From NCBI GenBank assembly GCA_964489015.1, contig CAZAXD010000005.1, forward strand, positions 13,521 through 77,520: a stretch of DNA of 64,000 nucleotides, read 5' to 3'. Under the pieces are notes generated by a model. It searched no databases. It was not told where the DNA came from and saw nothing but the letters and a program-made list of their open reading frames with translations. Made by a program: the position numbers and the translations under genes. Shown piece after piece: positions 23,249 to 40,275 of the stretch; the stretch's first letter is position 1, and the number at the start of each line of letters is the position of its first letter. The DNA comes from an uncultured Sphingobacterium sp. (GTDB taxonomy: Bacteria; Bacteroidota; Bacteroidia; SpSt-205).

Positions 23249-23268
23249 AATTTTGAGGGAGAAGCGTT

Positions 23269-24129: not shown

Positions 24130-24161
24130 CAAACAAAAGTACGTTTCCTCATCTTTGCAGC

Positions 24162-25013: not shown

Positions 25014-25762
25014 AATGAAGAAGGCCCCCTTTTGGGGGCCGACCGGCTGGACTGACAAGATCGCAACTGATGTGTGAAGAGCAAGAGCCTTCTAAGGGCG
25101 CTTTCGCTCACATCCAGTTTTTGCGTAGAAGATCTAAACTTCTCTATGAATACGAGGGGATCGGGAAACAAACTATTTACTAGCTCAGCTTCTTGCTCTA
25201 ACTCGTCGAAATGAGGGGAGCGCTCCGCCGTGTATTTGATAAGGTACCGGTGCACAAAATGGTTACGCCCCTCGCCAGGAGCTTGGGGCAAAGGATGAGC
25301 GTACAACTCCTGCGGTAAAGATACTTTGAGCCTGCATAACGCAAACAGCCAAGCGGGAATAAGGGGTAGTTCAGAAAACGGAAGATACCGCGCCCACACC
25401 CGCCCGCAGCTGGGTGGAGCAATGACCCCGCGCCCCTCCCATTGAAAATCAACCCCCTCCAACACCTTGCGGGGAAGCTCTGTCAGCTCAGCACGAAAAT
25501 AGTAGTGCGCGCCTCGAGACGTGCGGTAATAGGCACACTCCGTGTTTTGAAGCAGTTGATGCAGGGAGGTATGCAGCAGGGTGCTGCCATCCACATCGAC
25601 AACGAGAAGGCCCAGGCCCGTAAGAATGCCAACATCTGCACCTTCAGGCCAGGTGGCGGGATTATACTTATACGCCTGCCAGCCCGCTGCTAGCGGACGC
25701 TTGCCCTGGGCAGGGTATACCCTGTACCCGTCTCGGACCAGGCGCTCAACTGTTACCGTCAT
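25010..25762 (-). CDS. Bifunctional DNA primase/polymerase (Prim-Pol) N-terminal domain protein
   Basis: It resembles archaeo-eukaryotic primase-like Prim-Pol domains found on plasmids, phages and integrative elements: YPAQGKRPLAAGWQAY, the acidic LLVVDVDG, and the downstream aromatic/His block. Confidence 0.5.
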   Translation of the reverse strand: MTVTVERLVRDGYRVYPAQGKRPLAAGWQAYKYNPATWPEGADVGILTGLGLLVVDVDGSTLLHTSLHQLLQNTECAYYRTSRGAHYYFRAELTELPRKVLEGVDFQWEGRGVIAPPSCGRVWARYLPFSELPLIPAWLFALCRLKVSLPQELYAHPLPQAPGEGRNHFVHRYLIKYTAERSPHFDELEQEAELVNSLFPDPLVFIEKFRSSTQKLDVSESALRRLLLFTHQLRSCQSSRSAPKRGPSSF

Positions 25763-25934
25763 GATTGTGTATCTTGACTACGCGTTTTAGATATTCCGCA
25801 CGATGCACAAACGTCTTGTGCCCTATGTCAATATAAGGAACCTTGTACCCTTTTAAGTGCCTGCGTACAGTAGCCGTACAAATTCCCAGCTCCTTCGCAA
25901 GCCGGGGAAGGTGGGTATACTCGCCCAGGTCCAT
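25746..25934 (-). CDS. Excisionase-family helix-turn-helix DNA-binding protein
   Basis: The 62-aa protein has the HTH_17/Xis-like pattern LPRLAKELGICTATVRRHLKGYKVPYIDIGHKTFVHRAEYLKRV. It overlaps the Prim-Pol gene start by about 17 nt. Confidence 0.5.
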   Translation of the reverse strand: MDLGEYTHLPRLAKELGICTATVRRHLKGYKVPYIDIGHKTFVHRAEYLKRVVKIHNHDGNS

Positions 25935-26297
25935 ATGGTAAATTTAGCACTACAACCATTACAATTAGCATGCCATAGCCAAGCACTCTGCCCGCCTCAC
26001 CACCCTTAGCACCGCTCCCCAAGGCCCCCAGCCTCCCCATAAAACAGAACAGGCCGCCAAAAGCGTTAGAACGCCAAAAAGAGCCGTTTTACCCCTATCA
26101 CTCGTGTGATCCCGCCCAGGCCCGAAAACCCCGCTCAAATCGGCTCTGAATACCGCTGGCCGCTTCCCTATCCGCTGCCCCGCGCCCGCTGCTAGGCATC
26201 TGCATCGGTGGTAAGCGCGCGCGGATATCTGCTCAAATCTGCGGCTTCGTGCACAAGATCTGTCACACAAAGCACTCATAAGTCCCTGTCCGCCAAT

Positions 26298-26540
26298 GGG
26301 TTCCGTCTCTGATACACATCAAGTGTCGCGTTCGCTAACCCTCTTATATCTTTTTTTTATAGTGTATCTATTTGGAAAGAGATACACTTGATGTGTATCA
26401 GGCTCGGAAGTCGCTGTCCTACAGCCACTTATGAAACGTATTTGTAACAGATAGTGAGCACGAAGAAGGGTCAAAGAGCACTTCAAGTGTAACACCCCTC
26501 TGCTTCTTGGTTTGAGGGTGTATCTAAATAGATACACTTA
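26298..26540. promoter_or_regulatory. Array of inverted heptamer sites GTGTATC/GATACAC (iteron- or operator-like)
   Basis: GTGTATCtatttggaaagaGATACACttgatGTGTATC lies at about 26359-26396. A second palindrome GTGTATCtaaataGATACAC lies at about 26518-26537. An outer 18-bp inverted repeat pairs CTGATACACATCAAGTGT at about 26300 with ACACTTGATGTGTATCAG at about 26385. All lie in a 1 kb non-coding region next to the Xis/Prim-Pol genes. Confidence 0.6.
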
Positions 26541-26897
26541 AACCCACTCCAAAAAGTTTTTTGCAACATCATGGCATTTGCACTTTATGGCGAGCGAGTA
26601 GAGGGCGTGCATGAGCTTGGGAAAGTTATATTTTGTGGCATGCTAAGTATGGCGAGGGGTTCTAGGGTGCCCCGCGTGGTACAGAATTTGATGAGTATTC
26701 CAGGGAAACACAAACTTCAATGCCTATGAAAACGCAAGTAGAACGGTATGAAGCCGTTCGGAGCCGTGTGGGGACGAGCCTACTGCTAGGCGTGAACACC
26801 TTTGCGAGGCCCTCTCGTCCCTGCCCGCGGGCGAGCGAGTGGAGGCACTGAGGGAAATGGCTTTGCTCGGCTACGCATCACACGCTTCACAACGTTC

Positions 26898-26924
26898 AGC
26901 AGCTTCCTCGTGCTGAGCAGCTCA
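26898..26924. promoter_or_regulatory. Perfect 27-bp palindrome about 50 bp upstream of the S8 peptidase start
   Basis: The sequence is cctcgtgctgagc-a-gctcagcacgagg (13-bp arms). It is followed by aaaaagagg rather than a T-run, so it is not a canonical terminator on either strand. A candidate operator or RNA stem. Confidence 0.5.
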
Positions 26925-26976
26925 GCACGAGGAAAAAGAGGGTCCCCTTGGTTGCATGAAAAGCTTACCTTAGGCT

Positions 26977-29900
26977 ATGCGCTGGTGGATCGTGGGATGG
27001 ATAGGCGCTATGTGGGCTCAGAGCTTCTGTGTAGCGGTGGCCCCTCAGCAAAAAGAACTGGCGCGGGTCCTGCGTCAAAATCGACTCGCTGCGCCGGTCC
27101 GTCAGGGACCCTTATGGAAAGGTCTTTCGCGAGTAACTCCATTAGTAGCTGATACGAGTTTGACAGACCTGAGCCACTGGTTTGTGCTCTCGTTTCAGGG
27201 AGAGGACAGCGCTGCGGTGGTGCAGCGGTTACTACAAAGCGGATACTTCTGGGTGGTGGAGCCCAATCACCGCCGCCGATTGTGTGCAGACCTGTATGGG
27301 TGGCATCATGCAATCATGGGTACGGCGCAAGCCTGGACCCGCACGATGGGACACGCGAACGTTCCGATCGCTATCATCGACACCGGGCTAGATACTGCTT
27401 TAGGGGCCTTTACAGGACAGTACTGGGTCAATGCCCCAGAGGATCTTAACGGCAATGGTCGCTTGGATTCTGCAGACCTCAATGGGCTCGATGACGACGG
27501 TAACGGCTGGATCGATGATGTGATCGGGTATGACTTTACGGACCAGGCTCGGGGTATTGCTGCGGGAGATGCTTGGACACCCGACCCGATCCCTGTAGAT
27601 GAGAATGGGCATGGCACCGCTGTAACGAGCTTGATCGCTGCGCGATCGGATAGAGGGCCGATAAGCGGCTTAGCGCCAGGTTGTCGGATTCTGGTGATAC
27701 GGGCTTTTAGTGCAGACGGCTACGGGGAGGATGATGATATCGCGCGAGGTGTACTTTATGCAGTAGAGCGGGGAGTTCGGGTCATCAACTGCAGCTTTGG
27801 CGATGAAGCCCCTTCGCAAATGATGCACGCTGTGATCCGGTATGCGGCTGCGCGTGGCGTGGTGGTGGTAGCCTCTTCTGGCAATGGCAGTGGAGGACGT
27901 CCCCACTTTCCCTCAAGCTTTCCCGAGGTAATTAGTGTGGGTGCCGCAAGCTATGACCCTGAGAGTGGTCGGCCCTTTTTGTGGCCCTTCTCGGGGTATA
28001 GCCGGGTAGACTGGATAGCACCTGGTGACCGAATTCCCGTTCTCCTACCAGGGGCCCAGGTGGCTAGCCTAAGTGGGACGAGCCTCAGTGCGGCGCTCAC
28101 AAGTGCGGCGATAGCTCTGTTACTAAGCCGCTTTCCCGGGCTAACCCCGGAAGCCGTCCGCGCTACACTAGCTGCTTCTGCTCAAGACTTAGGCGGGCCG
28201 GGCTGGGATGTGTATACAGGCGCAGGCCTGCTTAGGCTTTTGCCCGGCTTAGACCAGCCACACGAAGGGCTCATTCAGTGGCTCGAACCGGCGCCTCATA
28301 CAACGGCGCCGCTCGCGCCTGTGGCGCTTCGACTCCGGATTTATCATAGCCTCCTGGTAGGTTGGGAAGTGGCCCAAGCTAGAAGCTTGCAGGGGCCCTG
28401 GCTCGTGATCGCTAGAGGTCATCGCCCCGCTTGGGATACAAGCTTTACATGGCAACCGTCTAGCGAGGGTCAGTGGTATTTGCGCCTCTCTGCTATGCTT
28501 CGGAATGGTCAAGCGCAAGCGAGCATCCTTCCCTTAGAGGCTGTGCAAGGAGGTTTGCGCTTTGAGCAGGCTGAGATAGGCCCTGCATGGCGGGAGGGTT
28601 TCCAGGGCCGTGTGGCTAACTACCTACTCAATGCGTCCGCTCCAGTCTGTGTGGAGAGCGCCTCTGACCGATTATGTGCCGATAAAATCGATACCATTGG
28701 CGCGATCTTTTTAGGCATCAGGCCTTCCACGGCCTGGACCTTTCAAGCGCTTGGGGGCTTGGATACACCCCAGGTCATGCGCAGCACGCCGCCCCCCGCC
28801 TATGAAGCGCTAGCCTTTGATGCCTACGCCATTCGAAATATATCGGCGCCTGCTGGTTTTTACTGGCCTTATCCGCTCCCAGACTGGGGTGGGGATGGGC
28901 TGCCCGATTACGCTGCTGCGGTTTATGACGAGCAGGGGTATTTTCAGCATGTCGTTTATATAGAACGACGAGGGGCGGTGTATGAAGCGTACGACAGTCT
29001 GACGGCGAGGCCTATGCTTATCCGGGACGTGAGAGACTGGGATGCCGATGGTCAGCCAGACTTGCTAGGCGTGTGGGTAGACAGCTTCTTTGTGTGTAGC
29101 GGTAGTCCGCCCAAAGAGATCGTATGGCGAGGGGCCGGTCGGGCTGCCCGCTTAGACGCCAACCAGACCATCTGGCGACGCACGGAAAACGGGCACTACG
29201 AGCGCGTCTCTCAGCAGGGACAGGTCCTGGCGCGCTTGCTGGATACCACTACCTGGCAAGGCTCTACCACGATCCCTCGGCTGCTGCTGCTGCCTGCTGC
29301 TTCAGAGACTCTCTGGGTTTTTGGCAATTATTCAGGTTGGATTTTTGCCTATCGGGGGTCCTCGCTGGTAGAAGCTTATCCTACTAGCCTATGGGGGGTA
29401 GGCTCCTATCTCGAGGCTGTCGAGCTAAACGGCGATAATCAGAGCGAATTAGTTTATCTGGGGCAGCGGCCTGGGGCCAAACTGTGGGAGCTAGGCATCT
29501 TAGGCGGGCGACCTTGGCAGCACATAGCTCAAAGCGTATTTTGGTACGAGGGTGATTATGCGCCTAGACTCTTTCTGCGCGCCGATACGGTCCTGCTGTG
29601 GTTGCCTCCGTACGTGTACGTTGGCCAGCTTAGTATGAGTGGTATCCGCTGGTGGGCTTATGGACCGGCGGCTTGGGGCGCCTTTGGGCCACTAAGAGAA
29701 GGTTGGCTTCTTGGTCTCGACTCAGTCCCTTGTGTGGTAGAATATACCCCGCCTGTCCTCCTAGCGCCGGCCTGGATTCGGGTAGGAGCGTTAGGCGTGA
29801 ATGCCGTAGACCTTAGTTGGTCTCCAGTCGGCAGTGCTACAGGCTATGAGCTCTGGCGTATAACTGGTAATCAAGCCACTTTGGTTTATGCAGGTGCTCA

Positions 29901-30822
29901 GACGGATTACGTGGACACAGGGCTGGTAGCGGGGCGATATGCTTATGCCGTTCGGGCCATTGGCGGGGCCTTTGGTGAGGTCCGCGTGGTGAACTTAGGC
30001 CCCCGTCCCTGCCTAAGCGTGATAGACCTAAAGCCCCACCTTGGTCAGGTGATCCTCCAGGGTAATAGCAGTTGGTGGCAAAACGGTGAGTCTGCTTTTA
30101 CCTTGGAACCAGGGAACCTAAAACCTCTTTTGGCGCTGGGCAGTGGCCCTACGTGGATTTTACAATTTGCAGAGCCTTTGCAGGCAGGGGCTTACCGGCT
30201 AGTCATCGATACGCTTCTCCAAGATGAAGACGCCCGCTATTTAGACCCTGCATGTGATACGGTACTTCTCATTGTGCCGGCCTTACCTGGCGATACCTGT
30301 CCAAAAGCCATTACATGGGAGGCTGTTGACGAGCGCAGCATAGCAGTGACTTTTTCCCAGGCGCCGGGTCCTAGAGCAGAGGAGCTTACCTCATATACGA
30401 TACTCCCGGCCGGCCAAGTGGAAGCTATCACACGAATCACGCCTACCCGTTTACAGCTTCAGTTGTCCGTTTCTCCGAGTCGGGTGCCGTTTAGTTTAGT
30501 CTGGGCTTGGGACTCTACGTGTAAGGGTACGATAGCTTTTTCGCCCTTGGCCGAGAAGCTAGTAGAGTGGGCGCTCTTTCCCAATCCTATCCGTCGGCAG
30601 CATCGAGCCGTATTTTTTGGGGGGCTGCCGCCCGGGACCACTGTACAAATCTTGTCAGCAGATGGTGCACTCTGCACTCGTCTGAGAAAAGCTAAAGGGG
30701 AAACTTTATTGAGCTGGGATTTGCATACGCTACAGGGCGAGAGGCTGGCCCCTGGCGTTTACGTCGTAATCGCTGAGTACGCCGGCCAGCGCTTCTATGA
30801 TAAGCTGGTGGTCTTAGAGTAG
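26977..30822 (+). CDS. Large secreted subtilisin-like S8 serine peptidase with Fn3-like region and T9SS C-terminal sorting domain
   Basis: The signal peptide is MRWWIVGWIGAMWAQS. The S8 catalytic triad is in canonical order: D in IAIIDTGLD, H in NGHGTAVTSLIAA, S in SGTSLSAALTSAAIALL. An Fn3-like segment is present (VDLSWSPVGSATGYELWR). The C-terminus is a T9SS CTD (TTVQILSADGALCTRL...LAPGVYVVIAEYAGQRFYDKLVVLE). 1281 aa. Confidence 0.8.
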   Translation: MRWWIVGWIGAMWAQSFCVAVAPQQKELARVLRQNRLAAPVRQGPLWKGLSRVTPLVADTSLTDLSHWFVLSFQGEDSAAVVQRLLQSGYFWVVEPNHRRRLCADLYGWHHAIMGTAQAWTRTMGHANVPIAIIDTGLDTALGAFTGQYWVNAPEDLNGNGRLDSADLNGLDDDGNGWIDDVIGYDFTDQARGIAAGDAWTPDPIPVDENGHGTAVTSLIAARSDRGPISGLAPGCRILVIRAFSADGYGEDDDIARGVLYAVERGVRVINCSFGDEAPSQMMHAVIRYAAARGVVVVASSGNGSGGRPHFPSSFPEVISVGAASYDPESGRPFLWPFSGYSRVDWIAPGDRIPVLLPGAQVASLSGTSLSAALTSAAIALLLSRFPGLTPEAVRATLAASAQDLGGPGWDVYTGAGLLRLLPGLDQPHEGLIQWLEPAPHTTAPLAPVALRLRIYHSLLVGWEVAQARSLQGPWLVIARGHRPAWDTSFTWQPSSEGQWYLRLSAMLRNGQAQASILPLEAVQGGLRFEQAEIGPAWREGFQGRVANYLLNASAPVCVESASDRLCADKIDTIGAIFLGIRPSTAWTFQALGGLDTPQVMRSTPPPAYEALAFDAYAIRNISAPAGFYWPYPLPDWGGDGLPDYAAAVYDEQGYFQHVVYIERRGAVYEAYDSLTARPMLIRDVRDWDADGQPDLLGVWVDSFFVCSGSPPKEIVWRGAGRAARLDANQTIWRRTENGHYERVSQQGQVLARLLDTTTWQGSTTIPRLLLLPAASETLWVFGNYSGWIFAYRGSSLVEAYPTSLWGVGSYLEAVELNGDNQSELVYLGQRPGAKLWELGILGGRPWQHIAQSVFWYEGDYAPRLFLRADTVLLWLPPYVYVGQLSMSGIRWWAYGPAAWGAFGPLREGWLLGLDSVPCVVEYTPPVLLAPAWIRVGALGVNAVDLSWSPVGSATGYELWRITGNQATLVYAGAQTDYVDTGLVAGRYAYAVRAIGGAFGEVRVVNLGPRPCLSVIDLKPHLGQVILQGNSSWWQNGESAFTLEPGNLKPLLALGSGPTWILQFAEPLQAGAYRLVIDTLLQDEDARYLDPACDTVLLIVPALPGDTCPKAITWEAVDERSIAVTFSQAPGPRAEELTSYTILPAGQVEAITRITPTRLQLQLSVSPSRVPFSLVWAWDSTCKGTIAFSPLAEKLVEWALFPNPIRRQHRAVFFGGLPPGTTVQILSADGALCTRLRKAKGETLLSWDLHTLQGERLAPGVYVVIAEYAGQRFYDKLVVLE

Positions 30823-30838
30823 ACCTGGCATAAAGTTT

Positions 30839-31492
30839 GTGACTTCACCCACTGCTATGCTAGCGCGTATTGTCCTGATGGTAGGGGCTTTGAGCTTAGG
30901 GCTCGCCCAGGTCTCTGACAAAGAGGCTAAAAAAGAGATTCAGCGAAAAGCTATCAAAGAAGCCCGAAAAGAGGCTAAAAAGTTCAAAAAACAGGGTTAT
31001 GATGTCATGCCAGGCTCGCTGCCCATGGAAAAGCAGCTTGAGTACACCTGGATCAAGCTGTATCAGCGCGATGAGAAGGGCCAACCCCTGTACTTAAGCG
31101 CTGATGGGAATGCTGTGGCAGAAACCCGGACAGCGGCGGAGATGCAAGCGCTCGAAGCCGCCAAGCTCAACCTTGCTGGCCAACTCGAGACGTTCATCCG
31201 GGCTATCATCGAGGCAAATATTGCCAATGCCCAGCTTAATGCCGAAGAAGCGGCTTCTGTAACGGAGTTTCTCACAGCAGCTAAGAATATCATCGTTACT
31301 TCCATCTCACAGGTAGATCCGGCCTTCAAGATTTACCGTAACCTTTCTAATAGAAACGTGGAGGTCAATGTCAAGCTGCTGGTGAGTCGGGATCAGGTTG
31401 TACAAGAAGCCAAAAAGCGAGTTCGGGAAGAGCTGCGGGAAAGGCTCAGGGGCTTGCAAGACAAAGTAGACAAGCTGCTGCCATTGCAGTAA
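30839..31492 (+). CDS. Secreted Lys/Ala-rich coiled-coil protein (hypothetical, possibly LPP20/LpoB-like fold)
   Basis: It has a signal peptide, a lysine-rich repeat (KEAKKEIQRKAIKEARKEAKKFKK) and an alanine-rich helical core. It is the first gene of a tightly packed four-gene same-strand cluster. Confidence 0.45.
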   Translation: MTSPTAMLARIVLMVGALSLGLAQVSDKEAKKEIQRKAIKEARKEAKKFKKQGYDVMPGSLPMEKQLEYTWIKLYQRDEKGQPLYLSADGNAVAETRTAAEMQALEAAKLNLAGQLETFIRAIIEANIANAQLNAEEAASVTEFLTAAKNIIVTSISQVDPAFKIYRNLSNRNVEVNVKLLVSRDQVVQEAKKRVREELRERLRGLQDKVDKLLPLQ

Positions 31493-31495
31493 CCT

Positions 31496-32341
31496 ATGCG
31501 GGTCATCTGGGTGGTGGGGCTCGTCTGGGCCCAGGTCAAGGTCGTCAGTGGTACAGCCAGCGTCGAACTGCGTCCTGGCTGGTCTATGGAGCGGGCGCAG
31601 CGAGAAGCCTACCAACTAGCGATCCTCAATGCGCTCCAGACGGGCTTCCCCACCCAAGTCGCCCAAGCTAGTAAGTACCTTCTTCAAAACCGAACCGAGG
31701 GTCAGTCAGCCCAGACTACGACATACTTCTTTCTCACGGCAGACCAGTACCTTGGCGCCGAATGGCTCGAGACCTTGTCTGCTAAATACGAGACCCAGAT
31801 AGAGCGCGGCACGGTCGTAGTCACTTGCAGAGTAAAAGGTCGAGCCCGTGCCCGCGAAGTGCCGGCTATTCCCGTGGAGGTACGTCCTTTGCGCTGTCAA
31901 GATACAGCTTGCTTTACCCTCGATTTTAAGGACGGGGACCCCTTTTATCTGTATGTTCGCGTGCCGGTAGCTGGCTTCGTGCAGGTATTCTGGGAAGAAG
32001 GGGGCGCGATTTATCGCCTTTTGCCGTATCAGGGTATGCGCGTACAAGCGGTGCCCGTCCGACCAGATACGACCTATCTCTTCTTTTCTTTACGCACAGG
32101 CAGCCGTTCTGAAGCCTTCTGGACAGATGAGCTCATTCTCACGGCAGAGCAGCCAGAGGTGTTACATCGGCTGTATTTTCTGTTTTCGCCGAATCCTTTA
32201 GCTGCTCCGCCAGAACGGTACGATGACCGGCGCGGCTTTCATGGGGTAGACATGCAAGCTTTTCATGAATGGCTCTTGAGCGAGCGCCTTCGAGATGAAA
32301 AACTAACCTTGAAAATCCTAGATATAAGCATACGAAAATGA
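31496..32341 (+). CDS. Secreted hypothetical protein (caspase-associated; DUF4384-like by recall)
   Basis: The signal peptide is MRVIWVVGLVWAQV. The gap to the upstream gene is 4 nt. It overlaps the downstream WD40-caspase gene by 4 nt, which suggests translational coupling. Confidence 0.45.
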   Translation: MRVIWVVGLVWAQVKVVSGTASVELRPGWSMERAQREAYQLAILNALQTGFPTQVAQASKYLLQNRTEGQSAQTTTYFFLTADQYLGAEWLETLSAKYETQIERGTVVVTCRVKGRARAREVPAIPVEVRPLRCQDTACFTLDFKDGDPFYLYVRVPVAGFVQVFWEEGGAIYRLLPYQGMRVQAVPVRPDTTYLFFSLRTGSRSEAFWTDELILTAEQPEVLHRLYFLFSPNPLAAPPERYDDRRGFHGVDMQAFHEWLLSERLRDEKLTLKILDISIRK

Positions 32342-34167
32342 AAAGGTTCTGGTGTCTCTTGGGAGTCCTTGCATGGGCTCAACCGTATAAAGATCTGGAA
32401 GGGCATGCGGGTCCTATCAACGCCGTAGCCTTTACCTACGATAGTCACTATTTACTATCAGCGGGTAGCGACCGGCAAGTCGTTTTATGGTCGATCCCAG
32501 GTGGAGATCTCGTTAGCCGATTTCAGGGGGCTACGGCTAGCGTAAACGGTTTGGCGCTACTGCCCGATAGTTCTGGTGTATTTTGGGGCGCCTCCAGCGA
32601 TGGGAAGTTGTATCAGTGGCGGATTCGGAAACCCTCAGAGTGGCGAGCGGAGAACTGGTCTCGGGTTTCTCGTGACAAAGCCGTGGACCTATCTAAGCGC
32701 CTTCAAAAAACGGGACCGCCTATTTTATGGGAAGCGGTGACTATCCATCCCCGAAAGCCGCTCTTGTTTGCCTTAAGCCGGTACGGCCGGCTAGTCAGTT
32801 GGGACATCCAAGAAGAGTGGCTCCAGACGTATACCGACACGGCAGAGGTTGCTTATGCTTTAGCGATGCCGACCCATGGCAAGGTCCTGTACTTAGCGAG
32901 TGGCAGCGGAGCCATATATGCCTTGGACCCTAGTGATCTATCAACCAAAGAGGTTTTACGGGGACATCGAGATGGGGTGAGAGGGCTGGCGATTAGTTAT
33001 GATGATCGCTTGCTAGCTAGCGCGGGCTTAGATGGCAAAGTGATGGTCTGGCAATTACCGGAGGGTTTGCGGATACGGACGCTAGAGGGGCATAAGGACG
33101 GGGTTCGAGCAGTTAGCTTTAGCCCAGATGGTCGATATTTAGCGAGTGCGGGACGGGATGGACTCTTGTGCATCTGGGATGTGGCGACGGGTCAGCTAGC
33201 GAAAAGCCTTTCCTTGCCGAGTTCTCTGTGGGCGGTAGCCTTTAGCCCCAATGGCCAATATCTCGTCGCTGGCGGTAGTGAGGGCTTTTTGCGTCTGTGG
33301 CGTATCGACCAGCTTGGAATTCGCCCGGCCCAAATCCTTTCACCTCGGGATGAACTCTACACCCCTCCCCTTGTGCTCGAAGACGATGTGCCGGTCTGCC
33401 AAAAACCGCGTCCTTATCGGTACGCCTATATCATCGGCAATGAGGACTATCGTTTGTTTCAGCCCACTTTTACCCCGGCTATGAATGTCCCATATGCCGT
33501 TCGGGATGCGTACACCTTTCGGGTCTACGCCGAGCAGATCTTGGGGATACCCCCGCAGAATATTGTTTTTCTTCAAAATGCCACGAGTGCCCAGATGCGC
33601 CGCGAGCTAGACAAGCTATTGATTTTAGCCCAGGCGAGTCGGGGAGAAGCCGAGATATTCTTTTATTATGCGGGGCATGGCGTGCCTCATCCAGAGACAA
33701 AGGAGAGCTATCTCTTGCCAACCGATGCTTCGCCGCGGCAGCCGGAGGAGGGTGGCCTTCGCTTGACGGATATTATTCGGCAATTGGCAGAGAGCGGTGC
33801 CCATCGGGTGTGGCTTGTGGTCGATGCGTGCTTTAGCGGGGGCGCGCGCGAAGAGAGCCCCCTAGCTAGCCGAGGTATCCGCATTCGCCCGCGTCCCATT
33901 CAGCTGCGAGGGCCAACGGTACTATTGGCCGCTAGTAGTGCCGACCAGGAGGCTCTTCCCTATCACCAAGCCCAGCATGGGCTCTTTACCTACTTCCTGC
34001 TAAAAGCGCTGCGAGAGTCCTGCGGGTCTAAGTCTTTAAAAGCTATCTTCGAACAGGCTCGTCTGGAGACGACCCGGTATGGTCTGCTTCTGCATGAGAA
34101 GCTTCAGGAGCCTACTCTCTTAGTCAGTCCTGCTTTGCCCGAAACCGTCCTTTCAGAAAGCTGGTAG
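32338..34167 (+). CDS. Secreted WD40-repeat / caspase-like (peptidase C14) fusion protein
   Basis: The signal peptide is MKRFWCLLGVLAWAQP. There are at least six WD40 repeats (...LASAGLDGKVMVWQL, LASAGRDGLLCIWDV, LVAGGSEGFLRLWRI). The C-terminal caspase fold has the catalytic His in FFYYAGHGVPH and Cys in LVVDACFSGGA. Confidence 0.75.
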   Translation: MKRFWCLLGVLAWAQPYKDLEGHAGPINAVAFTYDSHYLLSAGSDRQVVLWSIPGGDLVSRFQGATASVNGLALLPDSSGVFWGASSDGKLYQWRIRKPSEWRAENWSRVSRDKAVDLSKRLQKTGPPILWEAVTIHPRKPLLFALSRYGRLVSWDIQEEWLQTYTDTAEVAYALAMPTHGKVLYLASGSGAIYALDPSDLSTKEVLRGHRDGVRGLAISYDDRLLASAGLDGKVMVWQLPEGLRIRTLEGHKDGVRAVSFSPDGRYLASAGRDGLLCIWDVATGQLAKSLSLPSSLWAVAFSPNGQYLVAGGSEGFLRLWRIDQLGIRPAQILSPRDELYTPPLVLEDDVPVCQKPRPYRYAYIIGNEDYRLFQPTFTPAMNVPYAVRDAYTFRVYAEQILGIPPQNIVFLQNATSAQMRRELDKLLILAQASRGEAEIFFYYAGHGVPHPETKESYLLPTDASPRQPEEGGLRLTDIIRQLAESGAHRVWLVVDACFSGGAREESPLASRGIRIRPRPIQLRGPTVLLAASSADQEALPYHQAQHGLFTYFLLKALRESCGSKSLKAIFEQARLETTRYGLLLHEKLQEPTLLVSPALPETVLSESW

Positions 34168-34182
34168 TCGTACCTTCGCGCC

Positions 34183-34686
34183 GTGTCTTGGCGGGTTTTC
34201 TGGAGATACGCAGTCATGGCCATAGCGGCTTTGGCTATTTCGGTTCTGGGCCTGCCGCAGCTTCATATCGTTGTATGGGAGACTCGGCAAGCCCAAAACA
34301 TCTACTTCTGGGGTGGACACACAGCGCTTCAGGCAAGTGTATCGGTTGTAGCCTACCTTTTGGCGGTCACATGGGCCTTGGTGGCGGCTGGCTTCTTGGG
34401 ATTAGCGTATTACCGGCTACTGCGAAGCGATAGGCGTGCTATTGCTGGACTCAACTGGGGCGCTTTTTTTATCGCGGTCGAGCTAGCCTTTTTACTGGGA
34501 ATAGGCGAGGAGATTTTATCGGATTTGCGGGGACAGGGCTTTCATGCAGACAGTTATGCGAGCTGGGGCGGAGGGATCTCCTTGGGTCTATTGATAGCGC
34601 TTTTATTTGTGCCCGGTTGGGTAAAACGGGCTTACTTTTCACCTAAAAAGAGAGAGCAGGTGACGGGTCCTTCAGACCCATCCTAG
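34183..34686 (+). CDS. Small integral membrane protein (hypothetical), last gene of the caspase cluster
   Basis: The 167-aa protein has four hydrophobic helices and no recognised motif. Confidence 0.4.
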   Translation: MSWRVFWRYAVMAIAALAISVLGLPQLHIVVWETRQAQNIYFWGGHTALQASVSVVAYLLAVTWALVAAGFLGLAYYRLLRSDRRAIAGLNWGAFFIAVELAFLLGIGEEILSDLRGQGFHADSYASWGGGISLGLLIALLFVPGWVKRAYFSPKKREQVTGPSDPS

Positions 34687-34700
34687 GGGCGGTTCGCTGC

Positions 34701-36383
34701 CTAGTTATAAAGGTCCCACAACACACCGAAGCTAAAAGCTCGGCCAGGCCACGGATAGGGGTAGCTCCAGAAGCTTCCGGGTACTAGTAGCCCTTCTGTG
34801 GCATTTTCTACTCGTAGGTAGACCAGCACGCGCCCCAGGTGCACGGTAAAAAAGGCATCGACACCGAGCCAGCCACCCTGGATGGGCACGGCTGGATCGC
34901 TATAAAAGAGGGCATAAGCGGGCTCATAGCGGGGTGGCTTGTAAGAGGTACTGCCTCGCAAGCGAAGCCCTAGTCGATAGACGGGCTTACGCCCCGGAAG
35001 CTGCCACCGACCATACAGGCCAAGCCAGCCACTAAGTAGCGGTACTTGTCGAAACCAAAACTGAAGGCTATCGGGTCCAGTGGCCTGCTGGATGCTTAGC
35101 GTGGGCCATACGCCAAACCAGCGTCTTTCCCAGCGCCCCTCTGCTCGCATCCCATACCAGGCGATCACGGCGCTAGGCTGATAGAGGCGACTGCCCTGTG
35201 CCAGGACAGGATATCGTTGGACGAGCCCCCATCCCGTCAGCCTAAGGGGGGGTAGCGTGTCCTGGCTTAGCGTAAAGCCCCCTTCTGCTAAGAGGGTTTG
35301 CGTGTTTTGGGGGTTAGGTAGCGGATAAGCTTGATAGTAAAACCAGGGGAGATTCTGGGAACTGTAACTGGTTTGAACCTGAAGTCGGTTATTGCCTAGG
35401 CGCAGACCTAATCGCCATTCGGGCGGCGGTGCGGCGGCAGAGAGCCAGCGCTGATAGGCTAGCTCAAGGCGGGCTCTGGGCCATTCTAAGGAAGAGAGGA
35501 ACTTTAGGCCGGTATGAGAAAAGAATCGCCATCCGATTCCCCGACCTTGCCAGGTCAAGTAGTGAGCTGCTAATTGGGCGGACCCCACCTGCGCACGCAG
35601 GCCTAGCTGAGTTTCTAGAGCCTGCACGTAAGTCGAGAAGGTATGCGTATCCACGCCGAAAGGCGAAACCGGCGCTCGACTAGGCTCGCCTCGCCAGCCG
35701 CCGCGCCGTTCTGCAACCCGACCATGAAGGCCAACGTAGGCCTTATTGACCTTGAGTCCGGCCTCAGTCTCTAAGAGGCGGTACCAGGTTTGCCATAGGC
35801 TACTGACGAAGTAGACAGGTTGCCGCTCTTTTTGGAAAGCAGCCTCTAGCCCCCCGGCTGGATCATATAAGCTTCCGCCATTGATTTGGTCTAAGAGCTG
35901 ATTCCACAGCGTTTGGACCTGAATGTACCAGCGCGATGTGTACTTGTACAAGCTCAGGCCGGCGCTGTAGTGGTCGGTCGTTTGGCCTAGGTACTCACCG
36001 GTGCGGGTTCTCCGCTGGTAGATGCCCTGGATACCCGCTGTAGGCGAGAAGTTTTGGGCATGATTCACAAAAAGTAACTGGGTTCGGCGGCTCGATTGAT
36101 CGAAGCGTAAGCGGGTGTAGGGCTTTTGGGTATAAGAGGGGGTCATAGAGCAAAGCAGATAAGCCTCTTGTTGACTAGGCCAAAGACCAGGGGAGAGCAC
36201 ACTACGCGGCGGAGCTATCGGAATGCCGTAGGGTTTGAAGTAACCTAGCCGCCAGAGCGGCATAGCTACTGTGTCCAAGGGGTCATAATAAGGTAAGCGC
36301 ACAGGGTCATAAATAGGCCCAGCGCGGTAGCTCGTATCGGGAAAGGCTGGGTACAGCTGGGTGACCTGAGCCCAGACGAGCAC
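34701..36383 (-). CDS. Hypothetical secreted / outer-membrane protein
   Basis: The 560-aa protein has a GTG start and a short ...LVWAQV signal-like N-terminus. It is rich in Tyr/Trp/Gly and beta-strand-like. No motif was recognised. Confidence 0.45.
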   Translation of the reverse strand: MLVWAQVTQLYPAFPDTSYRAGPIYDPVRLPYYDPLDTVAMPLWRLGYFKPYGIPIAPPRSVLSPGLWPSQQEAYLLCSMTPSYTQKPYTRLRFDQSSRRTQLLFVNHAQNFSPTAGIQGIYQRRTRTGEYLGQTTDHYSAGLSLYKYTSRWYIQVQTLWNQLLDQINGGSLYDPAGGLEAAFQKERQPVYFVSSLWQTWYRLLETEAGLKVNKAYVGLHGRVAERRGGWRGEPSRAPVSPFGVDTHTFSTYVQALETQLGLRAQVGSAQLAAHYLTWQGRGIGWRFFSHTGLKFLSSLEWPRARLELAYQRWLSAAAPPPEWRLGLRLGNNRLQVQTSYSSQNLPWFYYQAYPLPNPQNTQTLLAEGGFTLSQDTLPPLRLTGWGLVQRYPVLAQGSRLYQPSAVIAWYGMRAEGRWERRWFGVWPTLSIQQATGPDSLQFWFRQVPLLSGWLGLYGRWQLPGRKPVYRLGLRLRGSTSYKPPRYEPAYALFYSDPAVPIQGGWLGVDAFFTVHLGRVLVYLRVENATEGLLVPGSFWSYPYPWPGRAFSFGVLWDLYN

Positions 36384-36391
36384 AAGACAGC

Positions 36392-37219
36392 TTAGAGCGC
36401 CTGCACTAACTCTGTGAATATCCGGGTTAGTTTAGGTTCGGCTTCGTTGGCGACGTGGATGATTTCTTCTAGGGACACGGGCTTGAGGTTGTCTGGGTCT
36501 CCGATGTCTGTCACGATAGACATGGCAAAGACACGCATACCCATGTGATTGGCCACAATGCATTCGGGGATAGTAGACATGCCCACGACATCAGCACCAA
36601 TGATGCGTAAATACCGGTACTCGGCTCGGGTTTCTAGATTGGGACCGGCTACAGCGGCGTATACCCCTTCCTGGAGGGAAAATCCTAAGCACTGGGCAAT
36701 CGATCTTGCTTTTTCGATAAGCTGAGCGTCATAAGGCTGACTCATATCAGGGAAGCGGGGGCCAAGCTGATCGAGGTTGATACCGCGAAGGGGGTTTTCC
36801 GGTAAGAGGTTGATATGATCCCGAATGATCATGAGATCACCCAGCTTGTAGGTGAGGTTGACAGCACCGGCGGCATTGGAAAGCAGGAGGGTGTGGACCC
36901 CTAGGAGCTTCATGATGCGAATCGGATAGGTAATCTGATACATGGTATAGCCCTCATAATAATGGAAGCGTCCCTGCATGGCGACGACCTTCTTGCCAGC
37001 CAGCCGCCCAAAAATTAGCCGCCCAAAGTGGCTCTCTACGGTACTAATCGGAAAATGCGGAATAAAGTTATACGCTAGCTGAACTTCCTTCTCGATACTT
37101 TCAGCCAAGCGCCCTAGGCCTGTGCCTAAGACAATTCCGACTTCTACCTCATCCTGGTAGTAGCGTCGAATATATTCGAGCGTTTCTTGAAAGTGTTTAT
37201 AAGCTTCTGGCGTGCCCAT
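36392..37219 (-). CDS. Purine nucleoside phosphorylase (PNP-I/PunA type, inosine-guanosine)
   Basis: The 275-aa protein has the phosphate-binding N-terminus (VGIVLGTGLGRLAESIE) and PunA-type purine-site residues (MSTIPECIVANHMGMRVFAMSIVTD). Confidence 0.8.
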   Translation of the reverse strand: MGTPEAYKHFQETLEYIRRYYQDEVEVGIVLGTGLGRLAESIEKEVQLAYNFIPHFPISTVESHFGRLIFGRLAGKKVVAMQGRFHYYEGYTMYQITYPIRIMKLLGVHTLLLSNAAGAVNLTYKLGDLMIIRDHINLLPENPLRGINLDQLGPRFPDMSQPYDAQLIEKARSIAQCLGFSLQEGVYAAVAGPNLETRAEYRYLRIIGADVVGMSTIPECIVANHMGMRVFAMSIVTDIGDPDNLKPVSLEEIIHVANEAEPKLTRIFTELVQAL

Positions 37220-38288
37220 AGGCAGATAAAAGTTTGTAGAGGCTCCGCACTTTTTCTAAATCTTCTGGCGCGAAGGGCTCCATATGAATTCGCATGGCGT
37301 ACAAAGGTAGCGTATCGATCTCATAGAGCAGGGGACTATTATACAGTCTAGCCAGGTCTTTTTCCGTGGTCAAAAGTAGGAGATCGGCTAGCTCAAAGCG
37401 CTTTTGCAATCGGCGGTAGCTGTGACGCAGGCGCTTAATATCTTTTTCTGCATAGTGGTGATGGTCAGGAAAGGTATGAATCTCGGTTAGATATCCGCCG
37501 GCCTCTTTGACCATGTCCCGAAAGCTAGTGGGAACAGCGATACCGCAAAAAAGCAGGACTGACTTACGTTGCAGGAGCGAAAGGGGTTGACTGCCTTTGG
37601 TGGGGTGCCAGAGGTCTAGCGGTTTATAGATAAACCGGGCGGTGACTTTTCCGTGGAGAGGTATGCGGATCTTTTTGGGTCTAGCGTGCTTTTGATTGAG
37701 GACTAATAGATCTGCCCGCTGGTAAGCCCGAAGCGGTTCTCTGAGATAGCCTAGGGGGAATAGCCAGTCTTTCCAGGGGGGGCGCATGAGATCCATGAGT
37801 AGAATATCGGCATCTCGGACTAGCTGTCGATGTTGAAAGCCGTCATCCAATACGAGGATTTGGGTGTCGGGGTACTTCTCTAGCAAAGCGAGGCCAGCTT
37901 GGTGACGACTCGGGCCTACATAAACAGGCACTTCTGGAAAGCGGAGCTTGATTTGGACGGGTTCATCGCCAAATTGCAGGGCGGGCTCTGCGCAGGAGAG
38001 AGAGACCTCCGCAGTAGCTCGGCTCTGGCGACCGTAGCCGCGACTCAGATAGCCGACCTTGAGACCTTGCTCGCGAAGGGTTTGAATGAGAAAAAGGGTG
38101 AAAGGCGTTTTGCCGGTGCCGCCAAGGGTGAGATTCCCTACGCTAATCACGATACGGGGCAAGCGTCGAGTAGGCAGGAGCTTCCGGTCATATAACGCAT
38201 TTCGTACCAGGAGGATGAAGCCAGAAACCAGAGCCGCCACGAGACGTAACGGGAGCAGAGCCACCCAAAGGGTTCTTTTTAGCTTCAT
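37197..38288 (-). CDS. lpxK: Tetraacyldisaccharide 4'-kinase
   Basis: The LpxK P-loop is present (VGNLTLGGTGKTPFTLFL). An N-terminal membrane anchor helix is present. 363 aa. Confidence 0.8.
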   Translation of the reverse strand: MKLKRTLWVALLPLRLVAALVSGFILLVRNALYDRKLLPTRRLPRIVISVGNLTLGGTGKTPFTLFLIQTLREQGLKVGYLSRGYGRQSRATAEVSLSCAEPALQFGDEPVQIKLRFPEVPVYVGPSRHQAGLALLEKYPDTQILVLDDGFQHRQLVRDADILLMDLMRPPWKDWLFPLGYLREPLRAYQRADLLVLNQKHARPKKIRIPLHGKVTARFIYKPLDLWHPTKGSQPLSLLQRKSVLLFCGIAVPTSFRDMVKEAGGYLTEIHTFPDHHHYAEKDIKRLRHSYRRLQKRFELADLLLLTTEKDLARLYNSPLLYEIDTLPLYAMRIHMEPFAPEDLEKVRSLYKLLSAYGHARSL

Positions 38289-38290
38289 GG

Positions 38291-39301
38291 ATGGTCAAAG
38301 TTCGTAGCTTTGTGCGAATGGAGTCCTTTCCGATTCGGCACGATTGGCATCGGGAAGAGGTTGTTGCCCTGTACCGAAAGCCGCTTTTAGAACTGCTGCA
38401 GACCGCAGCGGCTGTTCATCGCCAGTATCAGAAATCGGGTCAGGTTCAGGCCTGCACGCTTTTGTCTATCAAGACAGGCGGTTGTCCCGAAGATTGTGCT
38501 TACTGTGCGCAGAGCGTGCGCTACCAGACTGGCCTCACCGTTCAGCGGCTGCTGGATGTCGAGGAGGTGGTAGCCGCCGCCCAAAGGGCCCAAGCGAATG
38601 GGTCTACACGCTTTTGCATGGGGGCCGCTTGGCGGGAGGTGCGTACCAACCGGGACTTTGATAAGGTGCTAGAGATGATTCGGCGGGTTCGAGCATTAGG
38701 CTTAGAGGTCTGCGGCACCTTCGGCATGCTCACGACCGAGCAGGCCCAAGCGCTAAAGGAGGCCGGTCTTACTGCGTACAATCATAACCTCGACACCTCT
38801 GCCGATTATTATGGACAGGTCATTACGACTCGGTCTTATGCGGATCGCCTAGAGACTCTAAGAGCGGCGCGGGCGGCAGGTCTGACGCTTTGTACCGGGG
38901 GTATCCTTGGTTTGGGAGAAGGCGAGGAGGATCGCATAGATTTGTTGCATACCCTATGCACTATGCATCCCCATCCCGAGTCCGTTCCGATAAATGCCTT
39001 AGTGCCAATTCCTGGCACGCCTTTAGCCGAACAGCCGCCCGTATCGATATGGGAGATGGTCCGCATGATAGCCACGGCGCGGGTGCTTATGCCCAAAAGC
39101 TATATTCGTCTCGCGGCGGGACGTGAGCGCTTTTCGGATGTGGAGCAGGCGCTCTGTTTCGTAGCGGGGGCCAACTCCATTTTTGTAGGCGAAAAGCTCC
39201 TAACGACCCCGAACGCTGCGCTGGAAGCGGATGCAGCGCTTTTTGCGGTTTTGGGGCTGACACTTATGCCTGCCTTCGCGGACAGTTTACCGGCGAGCTA
39301 G
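38291..39301 (+). CDS. bioB: Biotin synthase
   Basis: It aligns closely with E. coli BioB. Matching segments include the radical-SAM cluster LLSIKTGGCPEDCAYCAQS, plus YNHNLDTS, RFCMGAAWR and AGANSIF. The true start may be the ATG at about 38318. Confidence 0.9.
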   Translation: MVKVRSFVRMESFPIRHDWHREEVVALYRKPLLELLQTAAAVHRQYQKSGQVQACTLLSIKTGGCPEDCAYCAQSVRYQTGLTVQRLLDVEEVVAAAQRAQANGSTRFCMGAAWREVRTNRDFDKVLEMIRRVRALGLEVCGTFGMLTTEQAQALKEAGLTAYNHNLDTSADYYGQVITTRSYADRLETLRAARAAGLTLCTGGILGLGEGEEDRIDLLHTLCTMHPHPESVPINALVPIPGTPLAEQPPVSIWEMVRMIATARVLMPKSYIRLAAGRERFSDVEQALCFVAGANSIFVGEKLLTTPNAALEADAALFAVLGLTLMPAFADSLPAS

Positions 39302-39312
39302 ACCTTTGGCCT

Positions 39313-40275
39313 ATGTGGTGCCTCCTCATAGTGGGGCTGGTCTGGGCCCAAGTCCTGCCAAATCTTGGCGGGCAGCGGGTGGGCATCTCAGCGCTAACCT
39401 TTCTTAAGATCGACCCCTCCCCTAGGTCGGTGGGAATGGCCGGTGCGTTTGTACCCATGGGGTCTGACCCCTTCGCCGCCTATTGGAATCCCGGGGCTCT
39501 CACGCGACTCCATGGAGGTTTGGGGGCCTCTCACGCTTTCTGGATCGCCGGCCTGGATTACACCTACGCGACCTTTTCCTGGCCCTGGCGTGCGTCACAC
39601 CGCTTAGGTGGTCAGGTGCAGTTTCTGACGAGCGGCCCTATTGAACGGCGTACCGAGTGGCAATCGCAGGGCACCGGCGAATACTTCTCCGCCACTTACT
39701 GGGCTATCGGCCCGACCTATGCTTATGAGTTTAGCGACCGCTTTTCCGCCGGTGGGAGCTTCAAGCTTGTGCGTGAGGCTTTGGATCTTTTTCAGGCGAC
39801 GACCTGGGTCGTGGATATGGGGCTTTTGTACTGGACTGACGTACGTGATTTTCGATTTGGGGTGCTGGTGCAAAATTTTGGGCCTAATTCCCGCCTGCGC
39901 ACACGTGATCAGCGTTATAGAGGTCTTGGTTTAGGGACCTACCCTCCGCCGACACTTTTTGCCTTGGGAGCCGCCATTTGCCTCTGGCATCGTGAAAAAC
40001 ATCGCTTGGAGGCAGCCCTGCAGCTCAATCATCCTAATGACAATGCGGAAAATCTTCGTTTCGGGCTGGAGTACACGTATGCTTCTATTTTATTTTTACG
40101 GGCCGGACAGAAGGTGGGGGTTCGTGAGCAGAGCGTGCCCACAGCTGGGATAGGCATTCAGCGGGGCTGGGGCAGGGGACGCCTGCGTATAGATTATGCA
40201 GCCGAATGGATAGGTCCTCTGGGCCTCAAACATCGCATAGGTGTCGTATGGCAAAGAGAAGCCTCTTCTTCATAG
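39313..40275 (+). CDS. PorV/PorQ-family T9SS-associated outer-membrane beta-barrel protein (FadL-like)
   Basis: The signal peptide is MWCLLIVGLVWAQ. The family-typical N-terminal motif is present (ISALTFLKIDPSPRSVGMAGAFVPMGSDPFAAYWNPGAL). The protein is 320 aa, closer to PorQ than PorV in size. The assignment is from memory of the family signature. Confidence 0.5.
   Translation: MWCLLIVGLVWAQVLPNLGGQRVGISALTFLKIDPSPRSVGMAGAFVPMGSDPFAAYWNPGALTRLHGGLGASHAFWIAGLDYTYATFSWPWRASHRLGGQVQFLTSGPIERRTEWQSQGTGEYFSATYWAIGPTYAYEFSDRFSAGGSFKLVREALDLFQATTWVVDMGLLYWTDVRDFRFGVLVQNFGPNSRLRTRDQRYRGLGLGTYPPPTLFALGAAICLWHREKHRLEAALQLNHPNDNAENLRFGLEYTYASILFLRAGQKVGVREQSVPTAGIGIQRGWGRGRLRIDYAAEWIGPLGLKHRIGVVWQREASSS

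Follow-up and report, generated by a model that had tools for sequence, protein, structure and literature searches.

A predicted exported WD40-caspase protein and its two candidate Lpp20-fold partners in Bacteroidota

Introduction

Bacterial caspase homologues (orthocaspases, or 'metacaspases') are usually discussed as cytoplasmic proteases of cell death or stress, and to our knowledge almost none of them has a known substrate or partner. We describe here three adjacent genes in a 64,000-nucleotide stretch of contig CAZAXD010000005.1 (the whole of which is called the window) from an uncultured Sphingobacterium sp., one of which encodes a caspase homologue that is predicted to be exported together with the products of the other two. 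The source is a heat-loving Bacteroidia bacterium that exports a WD40-caspase protein, and its close relatives are a hot-spring clade. The three genes are as follows.

30839–31492 (+), g1: predicted exported Lpp20-fold protein, in which a long Lys/Glu-rich helix and a β-α-α-β-β core follow the signal peptide.
31496–32341 (+), g2: predicted exported protein, with an Lpp20/FlgT_N-like N-domain (residues ∼15–120) and a predicted DUF4384 β-sandwich (∼144–232 and beyond).
32338–34167 (+), g3: predicted WD40-caspase protein, with a signal peptide (residues 1–14), a seven-blade WD40 propeller (∼17–325), a linker and a C14 caspase domain (361–609).

Fusions of WD40 repeats to a caspase domain are well known in bacteria (PMC3501461, PMC7475262), and in this respect the locus is less exotic than was implied when an earlier interpretation of this DNA from its letters (the sequence-only reading) called it a non-textbook system. 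For bacterial caspase homologues, DUF4384 has likewise been described as an accessory domain, and signal peptides have been considered possible (PMC3501461, PMC7475262). WD40 is the commonest accessory domain, present in 10.9% of 671 surveyed homologues (PMC3501461, PMC7475262, PMC6426788), DUF4384 is elsewhere fused straight to caspase domains (PMC7475262), and N-terminal helices that may be signal peptides were noted in a 2012 survey (PMC3501461). The g3 protein resembles these homologues in its C14 fold, its His/Cys dyad and its WD40 repeats, and cleavage after a basic P1 residue is expected of it as well. It differs from the usual cyanobacterial order in that the propeller is N-terminal, the caspase domain is C-terminal and the whole protein is predicted to be Sec-exported. 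In further contrast to the known bacterial homologues, DUF4384 is predicted on a separate partner, g2, and a second partner of predicted Lpp20 fold, g1, is conserved. The operon survey of bacterial caspase homologues (PMC3501461) does not list this neighborhood.

With the paracaspase MALT1, g3 shares the YYAGHG motif around the catalytic His, a PVD motif and the D-x-C arrangement around the Cys. The two proteins align over ∼90 residues, and MALT1, unlike g3, is eukaryotic and cytosolic, carries death and immunoglobulin (Ig) domains and is activated when the CBM complex oligomerizes; it is Arg-specific. Gingipains and other clan CD proteases of Bacteroidota are specific for Arg or Lys, and g3 would, like them, be an extracytoplasmic Cys protease of a caspase-like clan in this phylum. 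Gingipains, however, belong to family C25, carry the C-terminal domain of the type IX secretion system (T9SS) and reside at the cell surface, whereas g3 is assigned to C14 and has no such tail.

Helicobacter pylori Lpp20 (HP1456), HP1454 and Tip-alpha, and the flagellar proteins FlgP/FlgT, are 9–13% identical to g1 and g2. Unlike the module described here, the Helicobacter operon has no protease, and the proteins known from H. pylori are either lipoproteins or accessories of the flagellar motor, whereas g1 and g2 have no lipobox Cys. Beneath the outer membrane, proteins of the Lpp20 fold (Lpp20, HP1454, FlgP, FapH) associate with themselves and with each other (PMC11756786).

Results

A WD40 propeller and a caspase domain in g3

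The C-terminal part of g3 matched Peptidase_C14 (PF00656) with 68.4 bits against a cut-off of 21.4 (E 1e-18, residues 361–577), and ten caspases of the wider family scored 60–93 bits against the same model. To compare g3 with its relatives, we used an alignment of 25 full-length homologues (84% to 31% identity, nearly all from metagenome-assembled genomes of Bacteroidia/Bacteroidales). His447, Cys498 and Asp496 were invariant in this alignment and in a second one (A7). His447 lies within YYAGHG (443–448) and Cys498 within DACFSGG (496–502), so that Asp496 occupies the position two residues before the Cys. The codons of the catalytic pair are the following.

33676–33678 (+), putative catalytic His447 of g3 (FFYYAGHG): assigned from its invariance and its alignment to MALT1 YYAGHG and Arabidopsis metacaspase-9 (AtMC9) SGHG.
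33829–33831 (+), putative catalytic Cys498 of g3 (DACFSGG): assigned from its invariance and its alignment to MALT1 LLDMC and AtMC9 DSAHSGG (mutated Cys).

When a caspase-domain profile built from 28 loci was searched against solved structures, the MALT1 paracaspase was the best match (E 2.3e-6), with YYAGHG aligned to YYAGHG and D-A-C to D-M-C, followed by yeast metacaspase-1 and a second metacaspase-1 (metacaspase-1 E 4e-5). In a search with the single g3 sequence, the dyad aligned with the GHG and the mutated Cys (DS(C>A)HSGG) of AtMC9. The exported WD40-caspase fusion with an intact dyad that had been proposed from the sequence is therefore borne out by the Pfam match, the signal peptide and the invariance of His447 and Cys498, and the dyad coincides with the catalytic residues of both MALT1 and AtMC9 when the proteins are aligned.

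Upstream of the caspase domain, the WD40 family (PF00400) scored 149 bits with four repeats above the per-repeat threshold, and seven WD40 units can be read in residues 17–325, in agreement with the prior estimate of at least six blades. Blades 2–4 are degenerate and contain a clade-specific insertion; in homologues that are more distant, canonical repeats occupy these columns of the alignment. Nothing follows the caspase domain, and the last residue of the protein is an invariant Trp. Three invariant residues that follow Cys498 (Arg504, Arg512, and Gly513) are candidate autoprocessing sites. A profile scan detected no T9SS sorting domain in g3, and the protein has no lipobox. With a C-terminal caspase domain, an N-terminal WD40 region and a cleavable signal peptide in 25 of 25 homologues, this family departs from the architecture of cyanobacterial-type orthocaspases, in which a p20-like domain at the N-terminus precedes the accessory domains and the catalytic domain is cytoplasmic or membrane-anchored. 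Based on these results, g3 is predicted to be an exported protein with a C-terminal C14 caspase fold and an intact His/Cys dyad, and it is probably an Arg/Lys-specific caspase-like protease of the periplasm. Its assignment as an EACC1-associated caspase (NF047832) was rejected, since it scored 76.3 bits against a cut-off of 140.

Predicted folds of g1 and g2

The g1 protein had no match in Pfam, NCBIfam or PADLOC and none to LPP20 (PF02169) at E 0.1 or better, and all 361 of its database homologues are named 'hypothetical'. Its AlphaFold model, with a predicted local distance difference test (pLDDT) score of 86.5, contains a long N-terminal Lys/Glu-rich helix followed by a β-α-α-β-β core, and on this model g1 would have the three-dimensional fold of Lpp20. 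Among 21 divergent members of the g1 family, two matched the LPP20 model of Pfam (best E 3e-6). When profiles were compared with the sequences in PDB, neither g1 nor g2 gave a significant match, Lpp20 being listed at E 4.1 for g1.

The g2 protein scored 16.9 bits against DUF4384 (PF14326), for which the cut-off is 27. This domain was matched by 23 of the 27 g2-family members (best E 2.4e-12) and FlgT_N by four of them, and several g2 orthologues are already named 'DUF4384 domain-containing protein' at NCBI. The g2 model (pLDDT 77.5) combines an N-domain like that of Lpp20 and Tip-alpha with a β-sandwich that resembles macroglobulin (MG) and other Ig-like domains, and three invariant cysteines fit an extracytoplasmic protein. 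The LPP20 and DUF4384 guesses of the sequence-only reading thus hold at the level of family and fold, but neither g1 nor g2 passes a curated threshold by itself.

Export signals

The proteins g1, g2 and g3, the product of the upstream S8 subtilase gene and other proteins of the window begin with very short hydrophobic leaders that end in (V/L/A)-W-A|Q. No substitution is seen at Gln15 across the g3 family or at Gln13 across the g2 family, as expected under the Bacteroidetes Q-rule, by which substrates of signal peptidase I have a Gln after the cleavage site (PMC5837995, PMC10653852). Since the leaders are conserved in the orthologues, wrong start choice is ruled out as their origin, and the signal peptides predicted earlier on three of four proteins are real.

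A profile scan for the T9SS C-terminal sorting domain (TIGR04183 or type B) found none on g1, g2 or g3, and the module was rejected as T9SS cargo on these grounds. Neither g1 nor g2 has a lipobox Cys behind its leader, although an S-C motif occurs in three g1-like members that are distant (L013, L021, and L027). We propose that the three proteins would be cut by signal peptidase I at A|Q and would stay in the periplasm, because they have neither a lipobox nor a T9SS tail.

Across the window, leaders of 13–17 residues ending in W-A-Q recur (for example in the genes at 26977, 31496, 32338, 34701(−), and 39313). Such a uniform leader could act as a simple predictor of the secretome of the source lineage.

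Linkage of the three genes in close relatives and across the phylum

In the two closest loci (L087, 84% identity in g3, and L088, 71%), the gene order is S8-g1-g2-g3-g4, where g4 is the gene that follows g3 in the window. In L089 and L172 (64%), the order is g1-g2-g3-g4-lpxB without S8, and L009 (64%, purE-g1-g2-g3) and L002 (48%, g1-g2-g3) lack g4. The order g1-g2-g3(-g4) is also found in metagenome loci L090–L097. Flanking genes differ among the loci of this close clade, and synonymous sites are saturated. Among WD40-caspase homologues at 31–37% identity, L010 keeps g1 and g2 upstream, but L003 and L006 do not.

A genome scan seeded with the caspase motifs (426 confirmed among the first 600 candidates) provided a sample of 80 Bacteroidota loci. 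In all 80, the caspase domain is C-terminal, behind an N-terminal part of 170 to 860 residues; in ten examples of this wider family, that part consists of MORN, CARDB, PEGA, WG repeats, BspA-type LRR or TPR. Iterated profiles and clustering placed g1 and g2-like genes in many of the caspase loci, mostly adjacent, on the same strand and in several orders.

The linkage was also assessed from g1, by a metagenome scan seeded with this gene, in which a locus counted as assessable if it extended 3.5 kb or more to each side. A caspase gene lay within 8 kb in 16 of 20 such loci, a g2-like gene was present in 14 and both were present in 13, when ∼2% of g1 loci would be expected near such a caspase by chance, assuming ∼5 such caspases per 4-Mb genome. 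With the caspase as the anchor, 14 of 29 assessable loci had a g1 or g2-like gene. Cultured hosts that could serve for genetics are among the carriers: the triad is present in Xanthovirga aplysinae (L053), g1 in Flexithrix dorotheae and Chondrinema litorale, and a caspase of the g3 family in Prevotella sp. P6B1.

Because the linkage is kept in the close clade and phylum-wide, without g4 and without S8, we take the conserved unit to be the triad of g1, g2 and caspase. The suggestion that the caspase has dedicated secreted partners agrees with the export signals of g1 and g2 and their linkage to the caspase in relatives. The idea that the genes stay together in relatives is true of g1-g2-g3 but not of g4, which is confined to a narrow clade.

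Several neighbors that recur in the wider family are absent from the window, namely Fib_succ_major, a family of ∼490 or ∼880 residues, CHASE2 and larger LPP20+DUF4384 proteins. The ∼490-residue (or ∼880-residue) family lies beside g1, g2 and caspase genes in L042 (4788–6260), L048 (11550–13010), L070 (10865–12388), L080 (1100–2569), L113 (8607–11237) and ∼20 more. Its conserved C-terminal DCEDR...H...CDPTY looks like a Cys-His-Asp (transglutaminase or papain-like) core; four ∼490-residue members had no Pfam match, and the ∼880-residue forms had only a marginal SBBP β-propeller repeat. Bigger loci with another arrangement (L113, L118, L120, L133, L135, L143, L147, and L164) contain a 268-residue protein with no Pfam match, CHASE2, g1, the 880-residue family and two caspases, and most of them add a 511-residue DUF4384 protein (LPP20-like in a cluster-mate). 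Parts of the module appear to be assembled into bigger loci elsewhere.

Layout of the locus and coding status of its genes

Two further genes adjoin the triad.

34183–34686 (+), g4: small four-helix inner-membrane protein, a lineage-specific addition.
26977–30822 (+), S8: subtilase of 1281 residues with a probable T9SS tail; a neighbor by context only, not part of the conserved module.

A six-frame list of open reading frames confirmed the coordinates and the plus strand of g1–g4 exactly as first read. A 3-nucleotide (nt) gap separates g1 from g2 and a 15-nt gap g3 from g4, and g2 and g3 overlap by 4 nt (ATGA), which suggests translational coupling of the latter pair. The 4-nt overlaps had been reported in the plural; there is just one in the window, but the orthologous loci L088, L089 and L172 have two each. 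Downstream of g4 are a convergent Porin_10 gene and, two genes downstream, lpxK on the opposite strand.

In comparison with the 84% relative L087, the ratio of nonsynonymous to synonymous substitution rates (dN/dS) of S8 and g1–g4 was at most 0.07 where computable, with synonymous sites near saturation (g1, 0.02; g4, 0.07). For g3, dS was saturated and dN/dS was not computable; the proportions of nonsynonymous and synonymous differences (pN and pS) were 0.093 and 0.755. From these results, we conclude that all five genes are under strong purifying selection and, given the low dN/dS, that g1 and g4, which have no family assignment, are real coding genes. The start of g1 is most likely the ATG at 30857 (211 residues) and not the GTG at 30839: 211 residues is the length of nearly all g1 orthologues and agrees with the gene calls on related contigs. 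The signal peptide of g1 is the same whichever start is chosen.

Base composition across the region is unremarkable. A scan for σ70 promoters and terminators gave counts at or below shuffle expectation, with a model unsuited to Bacteroidota, and no tRNA genes or Rfam families at the gathering threshold were found in the whole window.

The g4 gene and the S8 subtilase are not part of the conserved unit

Hydropathy analysis shows four hydrophobic segments in g4, consistent with the polytopic membrane protein recognized earlier. The motifs LPQ, VWE, WGG, NW.A.F, EE.L.DLR and HADS are kept in four orthologues, and the start annotated for g4 agrees with the N-termini of these proteins. Orthologues lie directly 3' of g3 in L087 (68%), L088 (50%), L089 (41%) and, in part, L008, and g4 is absent at L009 (64% g3 identity) and L002 (48%). 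The protein has no Pfam, NCBIfam or PADLOC match and falls into only three representative clusters among 1.84 billion proteins. From this distribution, g4 is a recent lineage-specific addition in a narrow clade. A known PADLOC defense system was also considered and rejected: g3 gave only generic caspase/WD40-type matches, and g1, g2 and g4 gave nothing.

The S8 subtilase scored 133.6 bits in Pfam. Its C-terminus scored 20.2 bits against TIGR04183, below the cut-off of 23, and matched the C-terminus of PorZ at E 1.6e-8, so that the giant T9SS subtilase of the sequence-only reading stands as an S8 protein of 1281 residues whose T9SS tail is sub-threshold in that model. S8 adjoins the module only in L087 (75% identity) and L088 (51%) and is missing beside it in L089, L172, L009, L002 and all 80 wider loci; it is a neighbor by recent descent only. 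With g4 restricted to one lineage and S8 adjacent in just these two relatives, the proposed four-gene operon tied to the subtilase did not hold up.

An insertion upstream of S8

Relative to L087, the window has a 1.8-kb insertion at 25155–26946, upstream of S8; the flanks are collinear (window 20597–25154 with L087 37–4596, and window 26947–39997 with L087 4610–17633). The insertion contains most of an open reading frame for a 250-residue Prim-Pol N-domain protein (25010–25762, −), the last ∼145 nt of which (25010–25154) lie in sequence common to L087, and an imperfect inverted repeat with 82-nt arms (26245–26326 and 26384–26465). No direct repeats longer than 13 nt flank it. It is probably a decayed integrated element; the mobile-element remnant noted before is therefore a real insertion but is unrelated to the module. 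At its edge, 43 nt upstream of the S8 start codon, is a perfect 15-nt palindrome, TTCCTCGTGCTGAGC G GCTCAGCACGAGGAA (26904–26934), which may act either as an S8 operator or as a terminator belonging to the inserted element.

A gene for a XerC/D-type tyrosine recombinase (23269–24192, −; Phage_integrase and SAM-like N domain) lies beside an EamA gene. Since L087 has the recombinase gene at the corresponding position, likewise beside EamA, it is chromosomal and was discounted as a marker of mobile DNA.

Discussion

We consider it reasonably probable that, within the conserved Bacteroidota module of g1, g2 and g3, a caspase-like protease works with two Lpp20-fold partners, a function predicted from their sequences. 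The protease would cut after Arg or Lys, because Asp496 is at position Cys-2, where paracaspases and metacaspases also have an Asp. We take an Asp at this position to belong to the S1 pocket, as in the structures of MALT1 and TbMCA2. Bacterial caspase homologues cleave after basic P1 residues (PMC6426788). The N-terminal repeat module may pick the ligand or substrate. Because Lpp20-fold proteins typically interact with one another, g1 and g2 are proposed to bind each other and the protease, and their complex could tether the protease, gate it or be processed by it, so that the protease would be active locally and only under certain conditions. In g1, the Lys-rich helix is a candidate for a bait or for an element that binds membranes.

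Several observations weigh against this proposal. In a lineage at 66% identity (L007, L170, and L171), g3 occurs alone between dnaB and a P-type ATPase gene, so that g3 does not have to adjoin g1 and g2; in roughly half of the loci anchored on the caspase, neither g1 nor g2 is within reach. The g1 protein lacks a Pfam LPP20 match, g2 falls below the DUF4384 cut-off, and the Ig-like β-sandwich matches of the g2 model are generic. The Arg/Lys specificity at P1 derives from one motif and the S1 pockets of MALT1 and TbMCA2, and retention in the periplasm is deduced solely from the absence of known sorting signals.

A role in envelope biogenesis or maintenance, in which the module would have the housekeeping task of maturing or remodeling a component that belongs to the outer membrane or is associated with peptidoglycan, is possible, if doubtful. 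The neighborhood would suit it: Porin_10 and lpxK are near the module in the window and in L087, lpxB follows g4 after 10–11 nt on the same strand (L089, 11850–13425; L172, 9342–10917), LptE lies within 10 kb in L089 and L172, BamA and OmpH are also found in L089, and AsmA is next to a relocated g3. Purifying selection is strong, and Lpp20-fold relatives act at the outer membrane (PMC11756786). In the hot-spring clade, housekeeping is favored because of slow evolution, single-copy vertical inheritance and these outer-membrane-biogenesis neighbors. However, outer-membrane biogenesis genes are common, and their apparent association with the module may be weak; the flanks differ in the wider family, and such a role overlaps with a protease working with two partners rather than excluding it.

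We regard as unlikely an extracytoplasmic surveillance or conflict system, in which a repeat-module receptor would bind a periplasmic ligand that is foreign or signals danger (part of a phage, a toxin or an envelope component that is damaged, for instance) and the caspase, freed from g1 and g2, would then cleave an effector or a target in the envelope. This explanation is kept alive by three features of the wider family, namely swapped modules, tandem paralogues and CHASE2 neighbors: a constant protease is joined to exchangeable receptor-type repeats (WD40, LRR, TPR, MORN, WG, and CARDB), caspase paralogues occur in tandem in several loci (for example L027, L070, and L078), CHASE2 sensor proteins recur nearby, and the distribution is patchy. 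Haliscomenobacter has 28 caspase homologues (PMC3501461). In the hot-spring clade, by contrast, the module is present once per genome and is passed on vertically, with housekeeping genes around it (lpxB, lpxK, purE, and fabD), and it evolves very slowly, as the dN/dS of g1 illustrates; it matches no PADLOC system, and no mobile element is linked to the module itself. A more specific form, in which the triad is a periplasmic pattern-recognition protease whose interchangeable receptors sense a ligand that is foreign or signals danger and unleash a caspase held by an Lpp20-fold scaffold, seems to us quite unlikely. If true, the pairing of receptor and caspase known from immunity in eukaryotes and in the bacterial cytoplasm would have an equivalent in the periplasm.

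It is very unlikely, in our judgment, that g3 is a general degradative or nutritional protease that digests periplasmic or imported polypeptides, with g1 and g2 unrelated and merely co-transcribed. Bacteroidota do have many exported proteases, S8 is encoded next door, and an S9 peptidase gene follows a distant homologue in L006, but across the phylum g1 and g2 are strongly linked to the caspase family whatever the gene order, which speaks for a dedicated partnership; caspase-fold enzymes are typically limited and site-specific, and the repeat modules found here suggest specific recognition. Finally, a four-gene operon functionally tied to the upstream subtilase, either as a cascade processing T9SS cargo or as a checkpoint with S8, is highly improbable: S8, which probably has a T9SS tail, does precede the module by 16–34 nt in the same orientation, and L087 and L088 keep this order, but the gap between S8 and g1 is 269 nt in L088, S8 is absent beside the module at all other loci named above, g1–g3 have no T9SS tail, and no T9SS component recurs among the neighbors, so that the cargo-processing cascade of the sequence-only reading finds no support.

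Targeted searches of the literature found no description of the triad, a provisional result, as subscription journals were mostly outside their coverage. Three features appear to be undescribed: the reversed domain order with full export, a caspase family that spans the phylum with swapped N-termini, and the dedicated partnership with g1 and g2. The locus points to phylum-wide exported caspases with two dedicated, cleanly linked partner families, and g1 and g2 are candidate interactors or substrates of the exported caspase. It also offers a first genomic context for DUF4384 and for the 'hypothetical' g1 family. Should the exchanged N-terminal parts prove to be receptors, the triad would represent a new kind of envelope surveillance; if they are not, it would still be an uncharacterized periplasmic processing machine in a major bacterial phylum.

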